DNA of 64,000 bases from Escherichia coli O157:H7 str. 2011EL-2287 (GCA_000614405.2 GCA_000614405.2_3612.1); one strand, 5' to 3'; positions 4,772 to 36,835 are shown, counted from the stretch's first letter. A program made the numbers and translations. The notes: generated by a model not told the origin, from the sequence alone.

Positions 4772-6517
4772 ATGGCGCAAGACATGACAAGCTTTGAGCA
4801 GGCGGTAGATCAAGTAATTGTTGATTCTGAACGTTTGCACTTGGTTGTCAACGGTAACGCTGTGGATGAAGTTGTCGTAGAGGATGGGACCACCATCCCT
4901 ACGGTACGAAAAGCCATGCTTGACAACCTTTATTTTAAAACGCCACCGATCCCTTGGGCGTATGGTGCATCCACAACAGTTTTTAACCAGCTGTACGAGT
5001 TTAAAGGGGACACAGGCCCTCAGTGGTGGTACGCTCCCGCAGCATCAAAATCTAACCCGGTTAGAATGCCAGCAGATCCTTCACAATCTCCAAACTGGAG
5101 ATTATATACCGACTCTGCAGTAATGGCAAAATACTACGCAAAACTTAACAGCCCGAGGTTCGAAGGTGACCCACGAGTACCTACACCTCCAATGGACGAT
5201 AAGTCAGAGTCCATAGCAAACACAGAGTTTGTTGTTGACTATGTTGATAGCATATTTAAAGCCATGGAGGGGATGAAAGTTACTGTAGGGTCTTTGGTGG
5301 TAAAAGGTCTTACAGAACTCGCTAACACTATAGTTGGTGGCACCCTTACCTTACATGGACCTGTTAATGGGGCAGATTCTACTGCACGCTTTAGGAATCT
5401 AATCCTCACGGCAAATACTTCTACACTTACTTTTGCGTGGAGCGATCCTAAGCATGCAGACTGGAGAAGTACAGAGCTGCAACCTCATGAAGTGTCCACC
5501 CACAGGGTTATAGCTGACACTATAACTTCTGGGAAACCAGTGGCTAATAATAACGATGTGCATTTTGATGGTCTGGGTAATAACTTTTTTGACTACGTGT
5601 ACATTCGTGGTAATGCCATGAAGGCAGCAACCGAACCGACATTGCAGGTCGATGGGACCACCAGGGTTAAGAACCTTGAGGTGACAGGTACCGTTACAGG
5701 GATAACATACTCTGTCGATGGCACCATGATCTACCCTAGCTATATTGAAAGCACGGGTGATGCATTGATAAATGGCGATTTGGAGGTTGGCGGGTCTGTA
5801 GTTATTCGAGGTACAGCCTCTATCCAAAATATAGCTCTGAATACTCTAAGAGTCAATGAGCGTGCAACTTTTGAAGGAGAAGGGCTTACAGCCAATAAAG
5901 GTACAATTACCGAGCTAACCACCACCACTTTAACTGCAACAACTGCAAACTCTGAAAACTGCAACATTACCAGAAACTTGCAGGTAAATGGAGATGTTAG
6001 TTTAAACGCCGCAGGGACTGGCACCACCCACCTTCACAACCTTGAAATATCCGGCACAGTGACCGGGTGGCTGCCAGACTTCTCTAATGTCAACTTTGTC
6101 TGTAATGGCATTAACTCCAGTGGTAAGATAACCACCTCTCAAGAAATTGAGGCGGGTAAAACCATTACTGCCCCTACTTTCCACGCAGGAAAGGTAGATT
6201 TTGACTTAGAGGAGGTTGACGCGTCCAGTGGGACATGGACACCTAACGGGCAGGCCAGCATGTATGTTGTCCACTCGAAAGGGGATTTTACAATAGGACA
6301 GTGGCCTGGGACATCAGCGGAAGATAAACCTTATCCATTCACTGCAGTTATCTATGTCATTCAGGATGCTGTAGGTCACAACGTGACTTTGCACGATAAG
6401 TATGCTATCCTGTCGGCAACACCTGTTATTAACAACAAGGCTAACAGTGTTACCTTGCTGCAATTAACGTATTGTGGTGTTGGTGATATTGTAGACGTAG
6501 TAATTGCACAACGTTAA
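4772..6517 (+). CDS. beta-rich tail fibre / tail spike-like protein
   Basis: Repetitive Thr/Gly/Val-rich segments (VTGTVTG, TTTTLTATTAN) typical of fibre shafts; located in tail module. Confidence 0.5.
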   Translation: MAQDMTSFEQAVDQVIVDSERLHLVVNGNAVDEVVVEDGTTIPTVRKAMLDNLYFKTPPIPWAYGASTTVFNQLYEFKGDTGPQWWYAPAASKSNPVRMPADPSQSPNWRLYTDSAVMAKYYAKLNSPRFEGDPRVPTPPMDDKSESIANTEFVVDYVDSIFKAMEGMKVTVGSLVVKGLTELANTIVGGTLTLHGPVNGADSTARFRNLILTANTSTLTFAWSDPKHADWRSTELQPHEVSTHRVIADTITSGKPVANNNDVHFDGLGNNFFDYVYIRGNAMKAATEPTLQVDGTTRVKNLEVTGTVTGITYSVDGTMIYPSYIESTGDALINGDLEVGGSVVIRGTASIQNIALNTLRVNERATFEGEGLTANKGTITELTTTTLTATTANSENCNITRNLQVNGDVSLNAAGTGTTHLHNLEISGTVTGWLPDFSNVNFVCNGINSSGKITTSQEIEAGKTITAPTFHAGKVDFDLEEVDASSGTWTPNGQASMYVVHSKGDFTIGQWPGTSAEDKPYPFTAVIYVIQDAVGHNVTLHDKYAILSATPVINNKANSVTLLQLTYCGVGDIVDVVIAQR

Positions 6518-6565
6518 TATATCTAACCGCTCCTGACGGGGCGGTTTTCTTATCTGGAGAACACA

Positions 6566-9500
6566 ATGCTTCCAATCCCTTTGCTAAAACTTGGTCGTCA
6601 TTTCCTCGATAAGAGGGGTGGAATTAAGGAACTTGCTGTTCTGTCATACCCAATAGACAACAGTGATGGTACAAGCAACACAGTATCCTATGTAAATAGC
6701 TTAGCTATACTTTTTGATGATGGTCAGCTTAATATTACTGGCTATAATAGGTTCGGAGAGTGTCGGACTGGAGATCTTGATACAATAAACTATCCTAATG
6801 AGGCAGCTTGGAACGTAGACCATGTTTGGAGAGCTGACCGTGCATTTGTAATCCGCACATTCGATAATAAATTTTTCTATATTGGTTGCACAGCTGGTCT
6901 TATCGGATCGGAGGCAGCAGGTGGAAACGATGTTTGTGTCAGAGAGTGGACACCTTTGCCGGAACAGATCGTAACAGGGTTGCATTTGGACACCCATCCT
7001 GAGAGACTTGTTGAAGTAATGGGTGGCGTAAACAATACAGTGTGGGTAATTGCTGCACCAGAGGCTGATGGTATGCTTCACCTGTACGGCTCTGGCAATA
7101 ATACTTACGGCTCTCTTCATGTTGACAAAAGTCAACACGCTACTCCAGTTAAGATAGGTGAAACATCTGAAAGTCCAGAGACAGGTCCTTGGAAAAATCC
7201 AAGAATTAATTGTGAAGTTCATGACAACTCGGTTATTTTTGGTGGTCCTAACGGATTCTGGATTGCAGGTTATGATTTCTTAAGAAATAACAGCAAAAAC
7301 ACACTAGTTTATCCAGCCGAGCATGTGACTCTTGACCAGTTTAAAGGCATCCCGGTGGGCGAGACATGGAAAGGGTTCATGTGTGGACCTAATGGTGCAA
7401 TTATAGCCACAGAAAGGATGCACAAACCTGATGACCAACAGCTTGTTAATGTGTTTTATGGTCAGGATGTTTGGGGTGACGACACGTGGAGAAGCCTTAA
7501 CATCACCTATACCCATGAAGTAATTATGGCTCGCGGGTACGGGACTAGTGGAATTTTCTTCAATAATGGTACAAAACAGTACCGTGGTTTCTCCAGAAAC
7601 CTGTGTAACGATATTGGTGCTCAATCTGCTAATAATAGTCCTAGGGCCAATTTTATTCATTACAGAGCGCTGGCAACAGCTAAGTTTGTTGAACAGACAG
7701 AGCCAGTAAGCTGGACAGAAAGCGTTTATTTTCAAGGGATCCACAGGGAAGGTTTCTTAGGCACATTCTGTGTGGTAAATGGAAAGCTTTGGTGGTCAGG
7801 AATACCACGTGGTAGTTTTTCAGGATCTAATAACCTCTTTGGCGGCAGACTTAACAGCCAAGGGTTCACAGAGATTCCGGAGAATTGGTATAAAAATGTC
7901 CCGGTAGATAGCTGGGGTATCGAAGACATCTTTGATGTCAATGGTGTGAGCAATGTTAGCAACATTTACATCGGAGATACTGTCAAGATGAAATTGAAAC
8001 CTCAGCCGGAGGGTGCTACGTTCATTATTGACAAGATTGAGTTGGTAAATGCTGCAGGCACTGTTGTTACAGATGCAAACTATCAGTTCTCCACTAACTG
8101 GAACCATGGTGGTGCTAACGAAGTTGTGGTCACCCAGTATAACCGTAACATCAACAGACGTGGTTTGTATTCTATCAAGATCACCTACCATGACAAGCAT
8201 GGCACTGGAAGAACCTATACGACAAGGACTTTGAACTGGAACACTATAGTTCCTGCGTATCCGTCCAACGGCAAGTGGCATACCGTTGGTAGAAACAAGC
8301 AGTTCCATGTTAACGATACTGTATACTTTGGGCTGAATGGGACCCAGCCTGCAGTAGAAGGGGATACATCGTATATGGTCAGACTCCACAGAATGGATGC
8401 TGGATCAGTCACTTATGATGTGACCCAAGAGATCTACGATCAAAGACGCGCCACGTATGACAATATTGTGAAAACACAAGCCTTGTGGGAGTTCAATCCT
8501 AATGGCAAGGGTGGTAAAATGTTGCAGGTTAATGAGCAGAACGGAACGTCGTTGACTGTTCACGAACACCCAGACCCTTGGCCTGATCCTGGAAAACCTC
8601 ACCCGGGAGCTCGTACACTGAAAATTGTCAGCCATGATGCAGGATATTTCGGAATACGCTGGGAAGCTACAGTAAGATATGTCGACGGGACAACAAACAA
8701 CATAGGGATTACACTTGGCGGCACTAGTGAAGATAACTCGCTGAAAATTGCCTACACGCCCAGAGGTATCTCTATTGATAATATGGATGTTGTTCGCAAT
8801 GGCTACGGCGATGTGAATGTCAAAGTTACTCTTGGCGAACATCTTGGTGGGGAAAGGATCATCATGTATGCCTTTGATCATGATCCACGCACCAATGGAA
8901 CTTATGCAAATCAGGCATGGAGTTACCTGATAAATGCACCTGAGCCGAATACTAAAGAGTTCTACTATGGTATGAAGCGAGATGTGTGCAAGAAAACAGG
9001 AACACATGACTGGATTGCTATCTGCGTTAAAGATGAGCGCACAGCTTGGGATGAGCCTGTTAACAGATGGTTCATAGGTATTCCTACCAGAAGTGATAAG
9101 TATGTCGCAGAATATATTGTATGCATGGGCGGTACCAACCTAAACATGTGTTGGAACGAAGATGTAAACAAATACTCTGATTATGACTATATGAGGGATT
9201 ACTCTTGTAATTTGTGGTTTAACCAAACTACAGGTTACCCTCCAAGACAGGCAAGGGTAAATCCTGCAATCTTTACAGATACTCAGGTTTTCTTGACAAA
9301 ACAGGCAAACGAGGTTCAGACCTTCAAGAATAACTATGACCCTAACAAGTGGTTCTATAATTGTTACGGGGCATACTTTTGGGGGCCTGCTGAACTGCCT
9401 GACAGCGGTTCTTGCTTCGAGGCTGCAACCTACGGCAGCGACTATATCATGGGACAGGTCAAGAAGTACAAGATGATCCCAGGGCCTGAAACTTTAGGTA

Positions 9501-28261: not shown

Positions 28262-28599
28262 GTTTGTGGAGAAATATCGTTAACTACGTGTGTGGCAATC
28301 CAACTCCTGAAGAGAAGGATGTTGTGATTCACGATTTTACTAAAAGATCTCGTGAAAAAGATCTACTGCTAACAAAGGTGACTGATAAAGATCCTGCAGT
28401 AGGGGACTGGGCAGGTTTTGCGTTTACATCGGACGAATACACCTTTAACAAAGGTGACTACCTTGTTGTGGATTTTAACGAAGACATTGAGGGTGCTGAA
28501 CCTTACTATCAAACCCTTATTGTTGCAGGGTGTGTTAATCTCTCTGCAGGTATGCACAGTTTGATTCTTTTTGAGCTTGACTCTGAAGACCTTCAGTAG
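28258..28599 (+). CDS. hypothetical protein
   Basis: ORF overlapping dda stop (ATGA). Confidence 0.4.
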   Translation: MSLWRNIVNYVCGNPTPEEKDVVIHDFTKRSREKDLLLTKVTDKDPAVGDWAGFAFTSDEYTFNKGDYLVVDFNEDIEGAEPYYQTLIVAGCVNLSAGMHSLILFELDSEDLQ

Positions 28600-28659
28600 T
28601 AAGATGTAAGTCTAAAGGGGAGGCACTCCTCCCCACAAAAACTAAGGAAGCACTAAACG

Positions 28660-29868
28660 ATGAGTAAAACCAAATTAGAACTTACCTGGATAGGTAAAAA
28701 CGAGCGCAAAAAGTTAGAGCCGCACATTTTGTTAGAAGATTCTAGCAAATCTTACCACAGCCAGAAAGTGACCGAAAACGATATTTTTGATAATAAACTG
28801 ATTTTTGGAGATAACTTATTAGCATTGAAGGCGCTAGAGCAAGAGTATGCAGGTAAAGTGAAGTGTGTTTACATAGACCCGCCATTCAATACCGGGAGGG
28901 CTTTTGAGCACTACGATGATAGCCTGGAGCATTCCATTTGGCTGGGCTTAATGAGGGATAGGTTAGAAATAATTCGTAATCTTCTAAGTGATGATGGGGT
29001 AATATTCGTTCACTTAGATGATTGCGAAATGGCGTATTTAAAAGTTTTGATGGACGAGATTTTTGGTCGTGCAAATCAGTTAAATACCATATCGATGACC
29101 ACAAATTCCCCTTCGGGATTTAAGGCAACAGGAGCCACAGTTTTCTCCACAGCAAACTTTTTGCTTGTATATGCAAAAGATCGCACCCAGAAACCGCTTA
29201 ACAAAATCTATATACCTAAAGGGTATGATACAGGGTATAACAAATACTTATTAAACCCGGACGACCATTATAAAAATTGGACGTGGTGCGGTATTGCCGA
29301 TGCGTTTGCAAAGGCCAATGGCTATAAAGATGCAAAAGAAGCCAAGAAAAAACTGCCTGATACATTCGATGATGAATTAGCACAATTCGCAATTGATAAT
29401 GCAGAACGTGTATTTCAATCTGTTGCAATTGGTGGTGGAGCTAAAATAAAGAGAAAAGAAACTATCGAGAAGTCAAAGAGAGATAGGAATAAGGTTTATG
29501 TACATCCAAATGAGGATGTTGAAGGATTTTATATCGCAAATGGTAGGCAAATGGTCTTTTACTCCAATAGACTTTTGGAAATTGACGGTGAGATGCAACC
29601 TGCAGAACTAATAACTGATGTTTGGACAGACATTAGTTGGAATGGAATAGCAAATGAAGGCGGCGTTAGTTTCAAAAATGGGAAAAAACCAGAAGCTCTT
29701 TTGAAGCGGATTTTCGAAATGTGTACGCTAGAAGGCGATTTGGTATTGGATTCATTCGGTGGTTCGGGAACTACTGCTGCTGTAGCTCACAAGATGAAAA
29801 GACGTTGGATCTCAATCGAGCTAGGTGATCATTGTCATACCCATATTATTCCGCGCTTGGAAAAGTGA
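28660..29868 (+). CDS. Mod-like (beta-class) N6-adenine/N4-cytosine DNA methyltransferase
   Basis: N-terminus LTWIGKN...DNKLIFGDNLLALKAL; motif IV IDPPFNTG precedes motif I DSFGGSGTT (beta-class order). Confidence 0.8.
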   Translation: MSKTKLELTWIGKNERKKLEPHILLEDSSKSYHSQKVTENDIFDNKLIFGDNLLALKALEQEYAGKVKCVYIDPPFNTGRAFEHYDDSLEHSIWLGLMRDRLEIIRNLLSDDGVIFVHLDDCEMAYLKVLMDEIFGRANQLNTISMTTNSPSGFKATGATVFSTANFLLVYAKDRTQKPLNKIYIPKGYDTGYNKYLLNPDDHYKNWTWCGIADAFAKANGYKDAKEAKKKLPDTFDDELAQFAIDNAERVFQSVAIGGGAKIKRKETIEKSKRDRNKVYVHPNEDVEGFYIANGRQMVFYSNRLLEIDGEMQPAELITDVWTDISWNGIANEGGVSFKNGKKPEALLKRIFEMCTLEGDLVLDSFGGSGTTAAVAHKMKRRWISIELGDHCHTHIIPRLEK

Positions 29869-29997
29869 TCGATGGTGAAGATCAAGGGGGTATTTCTAAG
29901 TCTGTAAACTGGCAAGGTGGTGGTGGCTTCCGCTATTACAAACTTACTCCGACCTTAATTACGAAAGATAAGTCTGATCAATAAAGAGTACAATCAA

Positions 29998-30303
29998 ATG
30001 ATGAAACGTTATAAACCATACACTTTTGAAATCGATTTCGAACTTGACGATATGTTCACTGTGGAAGCTCAGGCAGTTGTCCAGTTGCCAGACCCAGAGT
30101 GCCGTGATTCTGATGTTGACTATTATGGATTTAGACAAATCACTGATGTGCATGTTTACCACAACGGTGAAGAGGTGGACTTCCACCAACTGCCAAACGA
30201 TATGCGCCACTCAATTTACAAACGTGCAGCCCGTGAACTAGAGTCATATCTGGATGCAGCGACGACAGCAGCTGCATTTGCTGAAGAAGTGGGAGGTTTC
30301 TGA
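29998..30303 (+). CDS. hypothetical protein
   Basis: ORF with RBS. Confidence 0.4.
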   Translation: MMKRYKPYTFEIDFELDDMFTVEAQAVVQLPDPECRDSDVDYYGFRQITDVHVYHNGEEVDFHQLPNDMRHSIYKRAARELESYLDAATTAAAFAEEVGGF

Positions 30304-30698
30304 TGATTACAGGTGTGAAGATTATCCAATACCACTTAACCAAATTGGAAGATGCTGAAAAAGAGCTTGCAGAAGTTCTGAATAGTGGATATACTTTACT
30401 ATCATGCGCCTGCTCAGACACCTACGCTGTGTGGACACTTATCCGGAAGGAAGAGCCTGCGGGGATCTTGGTGCCAAACCCTAAGATCATTAGTGAGGTG
30501 GATGACTACGCTCAGGACGGCCTGCCAGAAGGCTGGGAAGTATGGGAAGGTGGTGAAAACCCTGCACCAGGTAAGTGGGTAAAATACAAACTGCGTAGTG
30601 GCGCACAGTACGCTGACTATTCTGATGACCTGGACTGGAGTCATTCTTCACCAGAATCATCTGCAAGTTCCTATGATATCATAGCTTTTAAGGAATAA
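30303..30698 (+). CDS. hypothetical protein
   Basis: ORF, start overlaps upstream stop. Confidence 0.4.
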   Translation: MITGVKIIQYHLTKLEDAEKELAEVLNSGYTLLSCACSDTYAVWTLIRKEEPAGILVPNPKIISEVDDYAQDGLPEGWEVWEGGENPAPGKWVKYKLRSGAQYADYSDDLDWSHSSPESSASSYDIIAFKE

Positions 30699-30710
30699 GG
30701 AGAAGGCGGT

Positions 30711-31193
30711 ATGTCAGATTTTATGTGGAAAGTAGGTTACGCAGCCCCTGAAATGTGCGAAGCCTGCTTTGTGAAAATAGGCCGCGAGGATATCGACAAG
30801 GTGATCCTTAAGTTTCGTGATGTGGCTGTAATCGGCAACCGAGTGCTTAAGCACTTGAAGAATCTGAAGCTCACCAAAAAGAAGTTCTTCGGGCTTTTCG
30901 AAGAGAAGGTTGATGCTTGGACGCATTGCATTCAGGAAGCTAAATCTCACTACAGTGCTATCGTTACCCCAGAACGGGTAGCCAAGATGGAAGGGTTCAT
31001 CAACAGCACAGAGTTTGAGTGCCTGAAAGCTGCACTTGATAGTTATCCGAAATGCCTCAAGCACTTGGACAAATATGTAGAAAAGGATGGGGAAATGTAT
31101 CTCACCCTGGACGCATACTATGAGATGCAAGAAATTTTAAATTTAGATTTGACATTGGTATCCACCGAGTATACAATAGGTATCCGGGTTTAA
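30711..31193 (+). CDS. hypothetical protein
   Basis: ORF with RBS AGGAGAAGG. Confidence 0.4.
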   Translation: MSDFMWKVGYAAPEMCEACFVKIGREDIDKVILKFRDVAVIGNRVLKHLKNLKLTKKKFFGLFEEKVDAWTHCIQEAKSHYSAIVTPERVAKMEGFINSTEFECLKAALDSYPKCLKHLDKYVEKDGEMYLTLDAYYEMQEILNLDLTLVSTEYTIGIRV

Positions 31194-31198
31194 CATTA

Positions 31199-31228
31199 GG
31201 CCCTGCCCGAAAGGGTGGGGCTTTTTGC
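31199..31228 (+). terminator. rho-independent terminator
   Basis: Hairpin GCCCTGCCC-GAAA-GGGTGGGGC followed by TTTTT; same sequence recurs at 41622. Confidence 0.6.
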
Positions 31229-31242
31229 ATTAGGAGACAGCA

Positions 31243-32009
31243 AATTGAAATTCATCTACAAAGAACACTACCACAAAGGTGTTGTGTGGAGCCTATTTGA
31301 CGGGTCTGGTGGTGCAGTTATTGACTGGGCAAAAGCTGGGTACCTGTGCCTGTGCTTTAATGCAGAAGGTGCTGACCACGGCAGTTATGCAGAGGTGATC
31401 ACCGATCATCCAAATATTCACTATGTAGATTATTGGATTGATCCATGGTTCCCTCAGGAAACTTTCTGCATGTACCCAGCTCCGGACTTTGTTCTTGCAT
31501 TTCCTCCGTGCACCCACTTAGCGGTGTCAGGTGCTGCACACTTTAAGAAGAAGCTGGCTAAGGACCCGCTGATCCAGATTAATGCTGTAAAGGATGCTCG
31601 GGTTGCAGAAGAGTTGGGAGAGATTTACGATTGCCCGTGGCATGTAGAGAATCCTGTGGGTGTTATGTCCACACTGTGGCGCAAACCTGATTACCGTTTT
31701 CACCCTTCTGACTATGGCGGGTATTTACCGGAGGATGATGTAAACCCCTGGTTTCCTGAATTTATAGCTCCACGTGATGCCTATCCAAAAATAACTTGCG
31801 GCTGGATAGGTAATGGATTTATAATCCCGGCCACAAAACCTGTCCCGCAAATAGTTGACGCGGTTAGCGGGTATTCCATGCAACACGCCAAGCTGGGTGG
31901 AAAGAGTGCAAGAACGAAGATGATCCGAAGCCTCACACCACGTGGCTGGGCAAAAGCCGTATTCTTAGCAAACGAGCCTGTAGTAAGGAGCAGAATTAAT
32001 GGGAAGTAA
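31243..32009 (+). CDS. DNA (cytosine-5) methyltransferase
   Basis: Motif I SLFDGSGG, motif IV FPPCTHLAVSG, motif VI HVENPVG; probable TTG start after AGGAGA RBS (ORF track starts at 31215). Confidence 0.65.
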
Positions 32010-34077
32010 ATTTATGGCATCTGCATACAACCGTTTCGGTGAGCCAAACCCGAAAGCAACTAAGTATAAAAGTGGGGGAAGTGTGAAACGAGACTATCGT
32101 GATGAAAAAGAAGTTGAAACTGTAGAGACTGTTTTAGAAAATACTAAAATTGTCCCTGTCCCACAACAAAATATCGGTCTGATGGCTGCACAATATTTTG
32201 GTGTGCGATCAGCATTGTCCCAAGAAGACGGTGTGACAGTCACTGCAACATATTTCCCATATTACGACCGCTACGGAAATCTGTCTGGTTTCAAAAAGCG
32301 TGACTGGACTATTCCTAAAGAGCAAAGGGGCCATTTCTCCGTTGTTGGCATCGTAAAGGCCAACTCCCAGATGTTTGGTCAAAAGCTGTGTGCATCTTCC
32401 AACAACCGTAAGCAGATTAACGTTTGTGAGGGAGAAGGTGATGTTATTGCAGCATGGCAGGCTGCATATCAGATACAAGTAAAAGGGATTCTCACCAACG
32501 CTAAAGCCCCGGCAAAGGTGAAGCAGTGGGCTAAAGAGGTCCAGGACGGGATCGACGCAGTTATCAACGGTGGTGATCTGGCAGGAAAACCCTGCCTGCC
32601 TTTTGTTGGAATTAACTGTGGATGTGCAAACGCAGTAGATACTTTTGCAAACAATGAGAAGTTTATCCGTAGCTATGGAACAGTTGTGCTGGCAATGGAT
32701 AACGATGCAGCTAACGAGGTAGAGAAGCAAAAACACGTCATTAAAGGTGTTGAGGCCACGCACAATATCGCAGCATTTTTGATGGCTGATAACGTTTACC
32801 ACGTAGAATACCCTGGTGAAGTAAATGACCCTGACGGTGTAAAAGATATCCGAGACATGCTGAAGGCTAAAAAGCTGGAAGATATTGTCAACATGTTCCG
32901 GCACCCTGTTAAATATGTGCCTGATGCTGTGTCGGATTTAGAAGACTTCTCTATCGAGTCTTTGCGGAAAAAGACTTCCAACGGGGTAGATATCAGTGCA
33001 GAGTTCCCAAAACTGCAAAAAATGCTAAAAGGCTTGCACAAAGGGACACTCGTAATGCTTACAGGTCCATCAGGCGGCGGTAAAACAACCGTGGCTAAAA
33101 AACTGGAACACTGTATTGCAAGATACCTAATGGACCCGACATGCCCGAAGGCCGATGACTATGAAGAGGATGATCGTCTATGCATGATCCATCTTGAGGA
33201 GGATCCAGAGGAAGCAATTAACTCCTTGTATGCAAACCAGTTAGGGTTTGATGTTAAAGAGTTTGTTGAAGATCCTAGCCAGTTTTTAACTGATCAAGAA
33301 CATGCAGAGATTCACCAATCATGGGCAAAAGCTGGAAAAATCAAAGTGTTCAAACATTTCGGGTCTATTCCAGTGGACGAGTTGATTACCAAGCTTAAGC
33401 AAATGGTCTGCCTATACCATTGTCGCTATATTGTGCTGGATCACCTGTCTATGGTAATTTCAGGGCTTAATGTTAAAGATGAGCGAAAAGAACTGGACAT
33501 GGCTATGACTCAGCTGGCTGCGTTTTGTAAGCAGTTTAACGTGTTTATCTTGGTGATCGCTCACCTCAAACGTACAGAGATTGTGCCTCCTAAGGACAAG
33601 GATGGTAACCCATTACCTTTCTGGTATCCTGTGCGAAAAGAGAATTTGCGAGGATCGGCTGGGCTTGAACAGTTGAGTTGGGTAGTCATAGGTGTCGAGG
33701 CCGAAGAAATGGTGGATCGTTCTCGTGGGCGTGTCCGTCTGGTAGGTCTTAAAAACCGTCCAGCAAAAACTTTAGGTATTGCTGACACTTTAGTTATGGA
33801 CCCACATACAGGTAAGTTCCATGATGCCAGTAATTGGTACTGGGACAAAGAAATGCAGATGTTTACAGACGGAGAAGGTGGGGAGATTGTTTGGAGACCT
33901 CAGGCCATGTTTGAGGACCAAGAGCATGCAGTTGTAGAAACACCTATGGGCAAGGTTGTAGCCGATAAGGTTGTAACTCCTACTATTAAGCCTGTTGACA
34001 CGCAGGAAGACCTCCAGTACGATGATCCATCCTCTGATCCGGTCCCCGGTTTTGAGGATGATGAAACACCTTTTTAA
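31999..34077 (+). CDS. bifunctional DNA primase-helicase (TOPRIM + SF4, T7 gp4-like)
   Basis: TOPRIM Glu (VCEGEGD) and DxD (LAMDNDAANE); helicase Walker A LTGPSGGGKTT, Walker B RYIVLDHL; acidic C-terminus FEDDETPF. Confidence 0.8.
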   Translation: MGSKFMASAYNRFGEPNPKATKYKSGGSVKRDYRDEKEVETVETVLENTKIVPVPQQNIGLMAAQYFGVRSALSQEDGVTVTATYFPYYDRYGNLSGFKKRDWTIPKEQRGHFSVVGIVKANSQMFGQKLCASSNNRKQINVCEGEGDVIAAWQAAYQIQVKGILTNAKAPAKVKQWAKEVQDGIDAVINGGDLAGKPCLPFVGINCGCANAVDTFANNEKFIRSYGTVVLAMDNDAANEVEKQKHVIKGVEATHNIAAFLMADNVYHVEYPGEVNDPDGVKDIRDMLKAKKLEDIVNMFRHPVKYVPDAVSDLEDFSIESLRKKTSNGVDISAEFPKLQKMLKGLHKGTLVMLTGPSGGGKTTVAKKLEHCIARYLMDPTCPKADDYEEDDRLCMIHLEEDPEEAINSLYANQLGFDVKEFVEDPSQFLTDQEHAEIHQSWAKAGKIKVFKHFGSIPVDELITKLKQMVCLYHCRYIVLDHLSMVISGLNVKDERKELDMAMTQLAAFCKQFNVFILVIAHLKRTEIVPPKDKDGNPLPFWYPVRKENLRGSAGLEQLSWVVIGVEAEEMVDRSRGRVRLVGLKNRPAKTLGIADTLVMDPHTGKFHDASNWYWDKEMQMFTDGEGGEIVWRPQAMFEDQEHAVVETPMGKVVADKVVTPTIKPVDTQEDLQYDDPSSDPVPGFEDDETPF

Positions 34078-34135
34078 TGTTTAACAAAGAGTGGGAGGGG
34101 TAGTACAACCGCCTCCCCTTTAAGGAGAACTGTAT

Positions 34136-36559
34136 ATGAGCATGTGGTCGTTCGACTTTGAGTCATCCGGTTTGCTGGAAGACCCAGATCTTTATTATCA
34201 CTGCGGCCTGTTTAAAGAGCTGAATAAGAACCGTTTTATGCTGTTCCTTCCTCTAAATGACCGCACACACTACTCCGAGGAGGATATAGAAAAGGCTAAG
34301 AACTTCATTCTGGCAAAGAAAACTCTTTATAAAGATTTTGAAGTTCGCATAGCAGATTTTTCAGAGTTGGAAGGTTGGCTTACAGGAAATTCTGACTGGT
34401 CACCAACAGCTTTGAACTGCCATAACTGCTACAGTTATGACTTTATGCTGATGGAAAGATTATCTGGTATTCATTTTGATATGTTCCGTGATCCTAAATG
34501 TATGGGGACTATCAACGATCACCAGGTTAACCTGTTTGATACGTTGGCGATGAGCCGAATCTTGTGGCCTGATCGCCCTTTACCAAAAGGTTGTCCGGAC
34601 TCTGTATTCAACCCGGTTACTAAGAAAATGCAGCCTGTTGGTCCTCACGGCCTTATGGCATGGGGCTACGCCCTTGGTAACCAGAAAGTTCAAATTGATG
34701 ACTGGCGCGATCTTCCGTTATGGAAGTATGTGGATCGTGTATTTGAGGACGTTATCATCCAGGAGCTGCTCTGGAAAGAGCTGGTAGCGGAATCAAAAGG
34801 TGTATTCTACGGCAAATCTGACATGCAGAACTTTATGTACGATCCTGCCAAAGAGAAGCCGAAAGGGTTCAAGAAGATCACCTGGAAGAACGCATTACGT
34901 CGAGGCATGTTGCAGCACTTCCTGATGGAGCTGCAGGCCCGTCAGGGTGTATACTTCGACATAGATGGAGCTATTGCTTTACGTGACCGTTGCGATGCGT
35001 GGATGAAAGAAATCGCTGATCGTGTTGAACCACAACTGCCTTTAAAAGAGCTGTTAATGTCTCAGCGGCCCAAGTTCCCTGAAAAGCCGTTTAACCAAGA
35101 TGGGACAATCTCTAATAATGGTTGGAAATGGTTAAAAGATAAGCTTGGCTATCCTGTGGACATGAGTGCTTTAGAGTTCAAAGCCCCACCTAAGCGAGCA
35201 TTTACCTCTACAGGAGATGTCAGTAAGATGGGGATAAAATGGTGTGAAGAGATGGGCTGCAAAGACCACGATAAGATGGCTGATTTCTTGAGAGGCTATA
35301 TTAAGGGCACCTCCACACCACAACCTTTACCTAAAGAGCTGATGGATCAGGCAATAAGCGATCTGCAGCAGAAGCGAATGCCTGACTGCAAGATACCTAT
35401 GAAAATCAGCAATCAGGACGATATTAAGCGATACCTGATCAGTGCTGGTTGGCTTCCGACAATGTGGAGAACTAAGGATGTAACTAAAGACAGCAAGAAG
35501 AAAGCTTTACCTGATGCAGATGTTGATGCACGAGTATATGCATATATGGACGAGCTTTTGGAGTCAGAGTATTGTGACCTAATTATCAACTTCTGGAACA
35601 AAACTGATGCTAAGTTCCAGACAACCGTGCACAAGTTCCGAAGCTTTCCTAACTCCGAAAGGATTAAAAAGGAAGTATTCGGGAAAATACGTAGAAAAGC
35701 TAGGGCACTTATTACTTCTCCGCAACTGAAAGATACGTTTGGACACCTGTGTCCGAATCTTGAAAAATTGAACGGAGAGATGGCTAAAGATATCGTCTTA
35801 TGGTTATCATTGCGAAACCGCAGATCGGTCCTTGATCCACTCAAGGAGGATAAGGTTGACACTGGTCTTCTTAATCACCCACGCTTGAAGATTGACCATA
35901 AGCTTCCTGCTAAAAGTTCTGGGCTAACAAACACTTCCAGACAGAAACACAGTATTTGTGCAAACATGCCTAAACCATCTCCTAAAGTGGTTATGGGTAA
36001 AGAGATGCGTAGTCTATGGGGTGTTCCTCCGGGATACTTTGAGATCGGTATTGACGGGTCCAACTTAGAGCAGCTTATCGGAGCTTGGGGTGCCTTTGAG
36101 TTCGACAACGGCTTGTATTATGATGTTGTAAGTAACGGGGACGCACACCAAAACAATGCTGAGGCATATACAAAAGTAGCAGGTAGAGAGGTGTCTCGTA
36201 ACGACGGTAAACCTATCACGTATGGGGTTATGTACGGGGCACAAAAAGATAAAGTTGCAGACATGCTGGATATCTCTCCAGAGTTGGGACAAAGGGTAAT
36301 CGATGCACTCTGGGATGCCAACCCTGGTCTTAAGGGGCGCAAAGAGGATCTGGAGAAATTCTGGGAAGCAACAGGTAAGAAGTTTATCTACTCTTTTGAT
36401 GGTCATGCTATCTGGACCCGATCTAAACACTCTTTACTTAATGCATACCAACAGAATGGTGGTGCATCGCTGTGTGACTTAGTTGGGATACTCATGCACC
36501 ACCAAATGGTGAAGCGTGGGTGGTACGATGAAGGTGTTCGTCGTATTATTTATTACCAT
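34136..36559 (+). CDS. family A DNA polymerase, exon 1 (3'-5' exonuclease + polymerase motifs A and B)
   Basis: Exo I FDFESSG, HCGLF and WGYALG align to T7 gp5 as I recall it; motif A GIDGSNLEQLIGAWGAFEFDNG; motif B RNDGKPITYGVMYGA; ORF stops right at the His of motif C. Confidence 0.85.
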
Positions 36560-36835
36560 AAATAACATTGTGGCTTCATAGAGTAATCTATGTCGAATAA
36601 CCTCTTTAACTGCGGGAAGCCTAAACCTTATGGCAAGGTAATCCGCAACGAAGCGCTCAAAAGAGCGAACGCTCAGAGGCCATTCCGAAAGGAAGTAGAC
36701 CAGCAAGTGCGGTCGAAATGGGAGGATTCCTGTGGTTGCTTATCATAGGAATATGAGATGGTCCGATCCTACGTGAAAACGTATGGCTATGCACGTAATG
36801 GTGCGGGGTAGCTTAACGACCTACCTGAACTATTG
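36560..36835 (+). ncRNA. group I self-splicing intron (no ORF) in DNA polymerase gene
   Basis: Inserted between His and Asp-Glu of motif C; follows exon U, ends with G; GUGG guide near 5' end pairs with exon CCAU; core elements AACUGCGGGAAG, AAUCCGCAAC, GUAGACCAGC, GAGAUGGUCC. Confidence 0.7.

Follow-up and report, generated by a model that had tools for sequence, protein, structure and literature searches.

The window considered here is a stretch of 64,000 nucleotides (nt) from the assembly of Escherichia coli O157:H7 str. 2011EL-2287 (GCA_000614405.2), and the subject is a pair of DNA methyltransferase genes, the open reading frames (ORFs) ORF1 and ORF2, which lie on its plus strand between positions 28,660 and 32,009 (Table 1). 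Judged by sequence comparison, the window is that of a Vequintavirus, an rV5-like E. coli myophage: the 5-kb stretch around both genes is 99.3% identical to Escherichia phage FFH2 and 95–99% identical to about 100 further Vequintavirus records. The window and its annotated relatives have a common gene order, in which rIIA/rIIB, a Dda/PIF1-like helicase, a small ORF and the first methyltransferase are followed by three small ORFs, the second methyltransferase, a primase-helicase and the DNA polymerase. The original prediction, made from the sequence alone, had described two methyltransferases of different classes standing 1.4 kb apart upstream of replisome genes, with no nuclease partner nearby. 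This description holds: one gene is of the beta-class, type III Mod-like kind (ORF1) and the other of the C5-cytosine kind (ORF2), their distance is 1.26–1.38 kb, and the primase-helicase (31999–34077) and DNA polymerase (from 34136) follow directly after ORF2. Both genes are already annotated in related phages, where their counterparts carry the GenBank labels 'type III restriction-modification system methylation subunit', 'putative N6 adenine methyltransferase' and 'Dcm-like C5 cytosine methyltransferase'. Nothing specific on either gene stands in Korf et al. (2019), in the paper on the rV5 genome or in the Danish wastewater paper.

A restriction nuclease or Res subunit was found neither in the window nor in the annotated relatives by Pfam, PADLOC and the relatives' annotation, which came from a 97%-identical relative for the window up to about 50 kb and from a second relative for the corresponding remainder. 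This covers the flanking ORFs and also the three small genes between ORF1 and ORF2, which have no Pfam, NCBIfam or PADLOC match and none of which is a nuclease. Both methyltransferase genes are orphans inside the phage. We consider it probable that they are unrelated genes with different histories, ORF1 being a captured host mod gene and ORF2 a core phage C5 methylase.

Table 1. Coordinates of the two methyltransferase genes and associated features, counted from the first letter of the window (aa, amino acids; RBS, ribosome-binding site; AF2, AlphaFold2)
Feature	Position	Strand	Basis or remark
Promoter-like site used by ORF1	28577–28605	+	Promoter scan, sequence
Hairpin used by ORF1	28617–28634	+	Promoter scan, sequence
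RBS used by ORF1, TAAGGAAG	28643–28650	+	Promoter scan, sequence
Left junction, AAACGATGA	28655–28663	+	Direct repeat of right junction
ORF1, type III Mod-like beta-class N6-adenine DNA methyltransferase, frameshift-truncated, 402 aa	28660–29868	+	Profiles, motifs
A4 run (A5 in relatives)	29861–29864	+	One-base deletion creates premature TGA 29866–29868
Out-of-frame remnant of the last 39 ORF1 codons (VIDGEDQGGISKSVNWQGGGGFRYYKL...)	29869–29984	+	Ancestral TAA 29982–29984
Right junction, AAATGATGA	29996–30004	+	Resident gene's own ATG at 30001
Three conserved small genes	29998–30303, 30303–30698, 30711–31193	+	PHROGs 4240, 11995 and 12900, all of function unknown
Sigma-70 promoter upstream of ORF2 (TTGACA, 17 nt, TACAAT; near-consensus)	31149–31177	+	Promoter scan
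Hairpin and T run upstream of ORF2	31198–31223	+	Promoter scan
ORF2, Dcm-like C5-cytosine DNA methyltransferase, 254 aa, TTG start	31245–32009	+	PHROG, AF2, Foldseek, homology

The Mod-like methyltransferase and its relation to host mod-res systems

ORF1 matches the Pfam family PF01555 (N6_N4_Mtase; E=1.2e-41, 143.5 bits against a cut-off of 26.7, residues 67–393) and the PADLOC profile MTase_III PDLC03636 (E=1.3e-179, residues 1–402 on profile positions 2–407 of 575). The predicted succession of DPPF (residues 73–76, nt 28876–28887) and FGGSGTT (residues 366–372, nt 29755–29775) is present and places motif IV before motif I, which is the beta-class order. The aspartate of a DPPF motif IV favours N6-adenine over N4-cytosine as the modified base. 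By sequence, the closest solved relatives are the type III Mod subunits 6k0w and EcoP15I 4zcf. ORF1 has the beta-class motif order in common with type III Mods (EcoP15I 4zcf; H. pylori 6k0w; Mbo45V 7dsu), as well as an N-terminal region, a catalytic core and an inserted target-recognition region; type III Mods adjoin a res gene for a superfamily 2 (SF2) helicase-nuclease, whereas ORF1 stands without res in the phage.

A protein search with ORF1 leads to an E. coli chromosomal 'site-specific DNA-methyltransferase' of 567–568 aa at 96% identity, followed by hundreds of bacterial homologs at 58–77% identity, mostly of 570–600 aa. At the DNA level the phage gene and the E. coli chromosomal mod are 94.5% identical over 1314–1317 of 1326 nt, and the chromosomal gene occurs in 24 of 5426 complete E. 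coli genomes at a coverage of at least 80% (29 with any match). The identity to the 568-aa E. coli Mod (WP_213054361) is 95% across residues 1–438, and it takes in the whole region from motif IV to motif I that holds the target-recognition domain. Only 21 nt after the E. coli mod, a 912-aa protein is encoded in all three genomes inspected, namely avian pathogenic E. coli (APEC) O1:K1:H7, bovine Shiga toxin-producing E. coli (STEC) O177 and enterohaemorrhagic E. coli (EHEC) O145:H25; it matches PADLOC REase_III (E=8.8e-191) and Pfam ResIII, as scanned in APEC E16002 only. Thus, going by homology and gene order, the orphan ORF1 has an identifiable cognate nuclease, in host genomes and not in the phage. 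The host-to-phage direction of transfer follows from three points: bacteria have the full-length form, this form is partnered by res, and it is widespread among them. The GC content is 39.4% in ORF1, 41.1% in its E. coli counterpart and 43.8% in the window.

The E. coli mod-res pair sits in a defence island with a DrmD-like SNF2 helicase, AbiD and an AIPR/AbiU protein nearby, and the order SNF2-Mod-Res recurs in Thermomonas fusca around a homolog of 66% identity. In the host loci compared (L012, L018, L019, L020), the pair is always preceded by an SNF2 helicase of about 965 aa, which matches the DISARM DrmD profile (E=9e-209). In E. coli (APEC E16002, L012, 906987–926304, among them), AbiD and AIPR/AbiU lie between the SNF2 gene and mod-res and a mad1-like helix-turn-helix gene lies upstream, while in Thermomonas SNF2, Mod and Res are directly adjacent. 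The host module may be a three-gene type III restriction variant rather than a plain two-gene system.

The ends of the transferred piece are preserved. DNA identity to the E. coli mod begins 5 nt upstream of the ATG and ends just beyond the phage stop codon, at a short AAATG microhomology; the stop codon itself was created when 11 nt of the bacterial gene were deleted, which turned KDKFGLEVINKEYN... into KDKSDQ-stop. The inserted segment of 1341 nt is a clean gap in about 30 of 117 Vequintavirus records, including HeinrichReichert (Bas58), MaxTheCat and LL12, whose sequences agree with both flanks at identities of up to 98.5%. In HeinrichReichert the empty site is AAACGATGAAACG, and there the same RBS is followed immediately by the downstream gene's ATG (...AAGGAAGCACTAAACG-ATGAAACGT...); the E. 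coli donor carries CAGAAATG at both ends of the transferred piece. Read together, these junctions are the trace of a capture mediated by microhomology, in which the insert landed in a resident gene's start codon. Because the capture lies exactly at the start codon, ORF1 inherits the promoter-like site, hairpin and RBS of that gene, and the same signals stand before the downstream gene in phages without ORF1 such as HeinrichReichert, which marks them as phage-native. ORF1 and ORF2 are each preceded by a promoter-like site and then directly by a GC-rich hairpin (28577–28659 and 31149–31244).

The captured piece stops short of the part that contacts the nuclease. EcoP15I Mod consists of an N-terminal domain, a methyltransferase domain (aa 62–262 and 390–516), a target-recognition domain and a C-terminal domain (CTD; aa 539–644); the CTD makes extensive contacts with Res, while the Mod dimer, a stand-alone methylase, forms via the N-terminal and methyltransferase domains (PMC4490356). 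The phage copies end at 441 aa as against 568 aa in E. coli, with about 127 aa missing, and in an alignment anchored on motif I the truncation point falls at about EcoP15I residues 515–525, the boundary between the methyltransferase domain and the CTD. In the AF2 model of the E. coli Mod, which Foldseek aligns to type III Mods over about 600 columns, a separate alpha/beta unit occupies approximately residues 450–541. Compared with type III Mods, all phage copies lack the C-terminal Res-contacting domain, and the copy in the window loses a further 39 residues. By alignment and model, the 441-aa phage copy appears to keep the parts for dimerisation, site recognition and methylation and to be without the nuclease-docking part. 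That all CTD-less homologs of about 440 aa are phage-borne was considered and rejected, as one of them (P0320) stands in a bacterial-looking context beside a TnsA-like nuclease.

Beyond protective methylation, such a CTD-less Mod might act as a dominant-negative inhibitor of the host type III enzyme, which we regard as quite improbable. Since the Mod2 dimer is formed by the N-terminal and catalytic regions, and the 95% identity spans both, the phage Mod should heterodimerise with the host Mod. Were the idea true, heterodimers would occupy sites without recruiting Res, or would deprive Res of a functional partner; restriction would be disarmed in the same infection cycle, before methylation is complete; and independent CTD-less captures would reflect selection for a decoy architecture.

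The Dcm-like C5-cytosine methyltransferase

ORF2 matches PHROG 757 (E=7.3e-87) and its AF2 model is of high confidence (pLDDT 90.9, pTM 0.90). In a Foldseek search of the PDB, 50 of the 50 listed matches belong to the DNMT3 family of C5 methylases or are 3g7u, a putative DNA methyltransferase from an E. coli prophage, and the top matches, DNMT3A/B and 3g7u, reach a best E of 5.8e-7 at a TM of about 0.5. By sequence, ORF2 is 53% identical to the Dcm-like gene (711 bp) of phage KarlJaspers (Bas06) over its full length (235 residues, E=4e-86). The genome of phage K42 is about 95% identical to that of KarlJaspers, and its Dcm ortholog, which resembles DNMT3A, was found by LC-MS (mass spectrometry coupled to liquid chromatography) to methylate cytosine at C5, depends on C82 and E128, both catalytic, and on K175 and K176 (all four mutated only together) and triggers the retron Ec86 via a CCWGG site, an inferred site, in the retron's msDNA (bioRxiv 10.1101/2023.08.16.553469). 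At a constant offset of 7, the equivalents of C82, E128 and K175 in ORF2 are C89, E135 and K182, all conserved. The K42/KarlJaspers enzyme, the retron Ec86 trigger of the Drexlerviridae, has 236 aa against 254 aa in ORF2, and a DNMT3A-like fold is predicted for both; ORF2 differs in its 10-residue N-terminal extension and in its location within the replisome operon of a myovirus.

The motifs read by the original prediction stand in part: FDGSGG (residues 18–23, nt 31296–31313) and PPC (residues 87–89, nt 31503–31511) are there as described, whereas the supposed ENV is in fact ENPV (residues 135–138, nt 31647–31658). In an alignment of 31 homologs, motif I is nearly invariant, P87, P88, C89, E135, N136 and P137 are invariant or largely so, and a C-terminal KLGGKSxRTKxIRSLTPRG block, separated from motif VI by only about 85 residues, is largely invariant. 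With canonical C5 methyltransferases (PF00145; M.HhaI, M.HaeIII, E. coli Dcm) and the catalytic domain of DNMT3A/B, ORF2 has in common the Rossmann fold, motif I (FxGxG), the Pro-Cys nucleophile of motif IV and the glutamate of motif VI. It departs from them in that motif VI reads ENP rather than ENV, in being some 70–220 residues shorter than the bacterial ones, and in that its alignment contains no recognisable QxRxR motif VIII or large target-recognition domain. From the homology, the model and the analogy to K42 Dcm, ORF2 is very probably an active 5-methylcytosine (5mC) methylase, and by that analogy CCWGG is a possible site.

The relatives of ORF2 number about 1000 distinct proteins at 50% identity, typically of 210–260 aa, in 1502 phage records, and among 120 listed homologs 3 have a precomputed PF00145 match. 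At 90% identity or more, the gene is found in 117 phage records, essentially every Vequintavirus, and by this distribution it is a core phage-lineage gene of the genus. A close host copy was not found, the nearest being weak 68% partial matches in five genomes. Because no near-identical host copy exists, the capture story applies to ORF1 alone.

The suggested TTG start of ORF2 proved right: an AGGAG RBS lies at 31232–31236, and the resulting coding sequence equals the 765-nt one of FFH2 and the BASEL phages. The mechanically called start, GTG at 31215, was rejected because this codon lies inside the terminator-like hairpin. ORF2 overlaps the start of the primase-helicase gene by 11 nt. The promoter and terminator-like hairpin upstream of ORF2 could mark the end of the upstream operon, or could form a leader or attenuator.

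Target sites, selection and rival explanations

For the two genes, identity, homology, junctions, domain loss, distribution among relatives and purifying selection are shown, whereas enzymatic activity, target sites and protective effect are inferred. ORF1 corresponds to the first 440 or so codons of an E. coli chromosomal type III mod, captured by the phage and set by microhomology-mediated recombination exactly at the start codon of a resident gene. During infection it would methylate phage DNA wherever the recognition site of that host system occurs, and progeny would thereby be pre-protected against strains with that mod-res system, a narrow form of counter-defence. ORF2, co-transcribed with the replisome genes, belongs to a large phage group of minimal DNMT3-like C5-cytosine methyltransferases and most likely puts 5mC on replicating phage DNA. 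Orphan phage methylases that derive from restriction-modification systems, such as T-even Dam and the multispecific C5 methylases of Bacillus phages, are presumed to pre-methylate phage DNA. Like ORF1 and ORF2, these are phage-borne and without a nuclease partner; ORF1 differs from them in that its donor is still identifiable, within the host species and at 94.5% DNA identity, its insertion junctions are preserved and the nuclease-binding domain has been removed.

The claim that target specificities are not predictable from sequence was too pessimistic on two counts. Since ORF1 is 95% identical to an identifiable E. coli Mod, the whole target-recognition region included, it should share the recognition site of that system, and the ORF2 family has a member shown to make 5mC, with an inferred CCWGG site. 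A methylome or recognition motif for E. coli carriers of the mod-res pair was not found in the literature searched by strain names. The word 'dual', too, falls short of the methylation repertoire, as relatives have four methylase genes in all, two of them additional adenine methylase genes that lie beyond the window. In Bas51 (WalterGehring, MZ501111) the four are bas51_0070 (the ORF1 ortholog), bas51_0074 (the ORF2 ortholog), bas51_0176 (108091–108624, 177 aa, NPPY) and bas51_0200 (124069–124887, 272 aa, NPPF); the latter two have no Pfam match, and their counterparts were not found in the window by tblastn.

Published native nanopore data for Bas51, whose ORF1 ortholog is intact, report N6-methyladenine (6mA) at 1405 GATC, 509 GTAC and 576 other positions, as compared with 35 GATC, 511 GTAC and 349 other positions in a T83P mutant. 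As estimated from 128 kb of Bas51, these counts account for practically every GATC and GTAC site of the two strands. The published mutations D69G, D79G and T83P fit only bas51_0176 (D69, D79, T83), the published retron-triggering GATC enzyme, so that GATC is not the site of ORF1. As candidates for the GATC enzyme, ORF1 and bas51_0070, with C69, G79 and E83 at the mutated positions, and bas51_0200, which the three mutations likewise do not fit, were rejected. For GTAC the enzyme is either bas51_0200 or the ORF1 ortholog, and for a type III Mod a four-base palindrome would be an unusual target. In the window, GTAC occurs 127 times and CTAG 65 times against about 241 expected from base composition, while GATC is enriched (320) and CCWGG occurs 128 times against 82 expected; GTAC is thus depleted in the window and fully methylated in Bas51.

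Several observations speak against ORF1 as a working counter-defence gene and against ORF2 as a C5 methylase of predictable site. ORF1 is missing in about 26% of the relatives and has been independently disrupted in at least five lineages, the window included; among its counterparts, two different frameshifts lie at a GKK poly-A site, one in P0275 (21 member sequences) and one in P0276, P0300 has lost residues 72–171 in frame, and Bas49 (EmilHeitz, L004) has a 5' frameshift. Absence and repeated disruption imply that the gene is dispensable. The 6mA motifs reported for Bas51 are GATC and GTAC only, with no asymmetric type III-like motif, which could hide only among the 349–576 unclassified sites; an asymmetric five-base site would yield about 275 single-strand positions in 140 kb and could sit in that class. 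ORF2 has no Pfam match at E≤0.01, PF00145 included, and no NCBIfam match at E≤0.1; searches of PADLOC and of PDB sequences returned nothing significant for it, and its profile-to-PDB sequence matches are weak (E=0.15). In addition, K176 of K42 Dcm is I183 in ORF2 (isoleucine or leucine in the Vequintavirus clade), and at 53% identity target specificity is not safely transferable. The identity of ORF2 is settled by the structure prediction together with the characterised homolog, the sequence-profile tests being insignificant.

The losses of ORF1 could be taken to mean that the gene is a decaying passenger, picked up by accident, of no current benefit and a pseudogene in the window. The frameshift here, at least four other independent disruptions (P0275, P0276, P0300 and Bas49), the clean absence in so many relatives and the lack of a reported Mod-type motif in Bas51 all fit such decay. 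We nevertheless consider it unlikely, because intact copies bear the mark of sustained purifying selection after capture. Among six of them the ratio of nonsynonymous to synonymous divergence (dN/dS) is 0.04–0.12 at dS up to 0.15, and between phage and E. coli copies it is 0.08–0.135 at dS of about 0.2; these low ratios indicate that purifying selection has acted since the capture, which took place before these phages diversified. Moreover, a related phage-like contig of 38.7 kb (L015, Logan SRR16894903) encodes at 6001–7335 an 85%-identical, 444-aa Mod, likewise without CTD, which lies between PhoH and ClpP genes, a locus different from that in the window, and this suggests that the same host methylase family was captured a second time, independently. 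That the gene is selected where present and yet often lost fits an advantage restricted to the minority of hosts with the cognate system. Whether the window itself holds a broken copy is a separate matter, and the chance that its frameshift is a homopolymer sequencing or assembly error, the real phage having an intact 441-aa ORF1, is in our estimate only a little short of even. A single base of an A run is affected, with A5 in 69 of 69 phage records matching the stretch and A4 in none; the rest of the 8.5-kb conserved block contains no other coding indel relative to FFH2, and gene calls on record include none for the truncated product. There are also many further homopolymer-length differences from FFH2 elsewhere in the window, a census that cannot separate real from erroneous ones. 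On the other hand, a real mutation is plausible, given that other isolates have similar lesions, two of which lie at a different poly-A site. In relatives the gene has 1326 nt and ends at window position 29984; the out-of-frame remnant is part of a 50-aa ORF at 29832–29984, and the lost piece corresponds to about EcoP15I residues 485–516, the end of the catalytic domain including the family-wide GGGGFRYY strand. The frameshifted product is probably inactive, if the frameshift is real and not a sequencing error. Exact-pattern scans of IMG/VR found neither the A4 nor the A5 allele, and an exact-product lookup of the 402-aa protein found no record. The poly-A runs in the AT-rich captured gene resemble mutational or sequencing hot spots.

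The original prediction had proposed dual self-methylation as a broad anti-restriction strategy. Self-methylation as protection stands as the most reasonable function, but its breadth is contradicted by the plating data of the BASEL collection, in which the Vequintavirinae were 'exceptionally susceptible' to six type I, II and III systems and were concluded to lack effective protection (PMC8594841). That both enzymes together protect broadly by methylating many sites is very unlikely in our view: two methylase classes are present, relatives have four methylase genes and virion DNA of Bas51 is fully 6mA-methylated at GATC and GTAC, yet each methylase covers its own site only, ORF1 is absent or broken in many isolates, and for the six tested systems the proposal is largely refuted. 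Neither of the type III systems in the panel, EcoP1_I and EcoCFT_II, appears to be the source system of ORF1, and narrow, system-specific protection is the better reading. Alternatively, the methylases might have a role within the phage's own biology, for instance in replication, in packaging, in the timing of genes or in avoiding mismatch repair, rather than in the evasion of defence. The overlap of ORF2 with the primase-helicase start, its place in the replisome operon and its core status in all 117 relatives would agree with such a role, whereas ORF1 is accessory and clearly derived from a restriction system, and K42 phages that had lost the homologous Dcm still plaqued on hosts expressing retron Ec86; as an account of both genes we find it improbable.

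With a captured host mod and a core phage C5 methylase as the preferred reading, the vague labels in current annotation can be made precise, ORF1 as a captured type III mod and ORF2 as a phage Dcm-like C5 methylase. New for ORF1 are its precise host origin, the preserved junctions, the missing Res-docking domain, the polymorphism among isolates and the frameshift in this genome, and for ORF2 its placement in an experimentally validated family despite failing standard profiles. ORF1 would represent a clean, datable case in which a phage has acquired the 'self' mark of a single, specific restriction system of its host, purifying selection stands beside recurrent loss and the pairing of phage gene and host system is directly testable. 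This would help to explain why rV5-like phages, which are used in STEC and APEC typing and biocontrol, can look unprotected in laboratory restriction panels and yet have several methylases. As such methylases are known retron triggers, carrying them has a cost.

Further observations on the gene neighbourhood

The DNA polymerase gene downstream of the primase-helicase is split. Its 809-aa ORF (34136–36565) equals ORF206 of FFH2 (2430 nt), after which FFH2 has an HNH endonuclease gene and then a short second polymerase exon. A second frameshift or poor assembly as the cause of the 809-aa ORF was rejected, since the first exon of FFH2 is likewise 2430 nt and split by HNH. In the window, primase-helicase and polymerase are separated by only 59 nt (34077 to 34136), without the extra HNH gene that stands between them in FFH2 and Bas51. 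Finally, at least 16 records named 'Campylobacter phage ...' (MG065635–MG065690, labelled C. jejuni) are 97–98% identical to E. coli rV5-like phages in this region, and are probably mislabelled or derived from contaminating coliphages.

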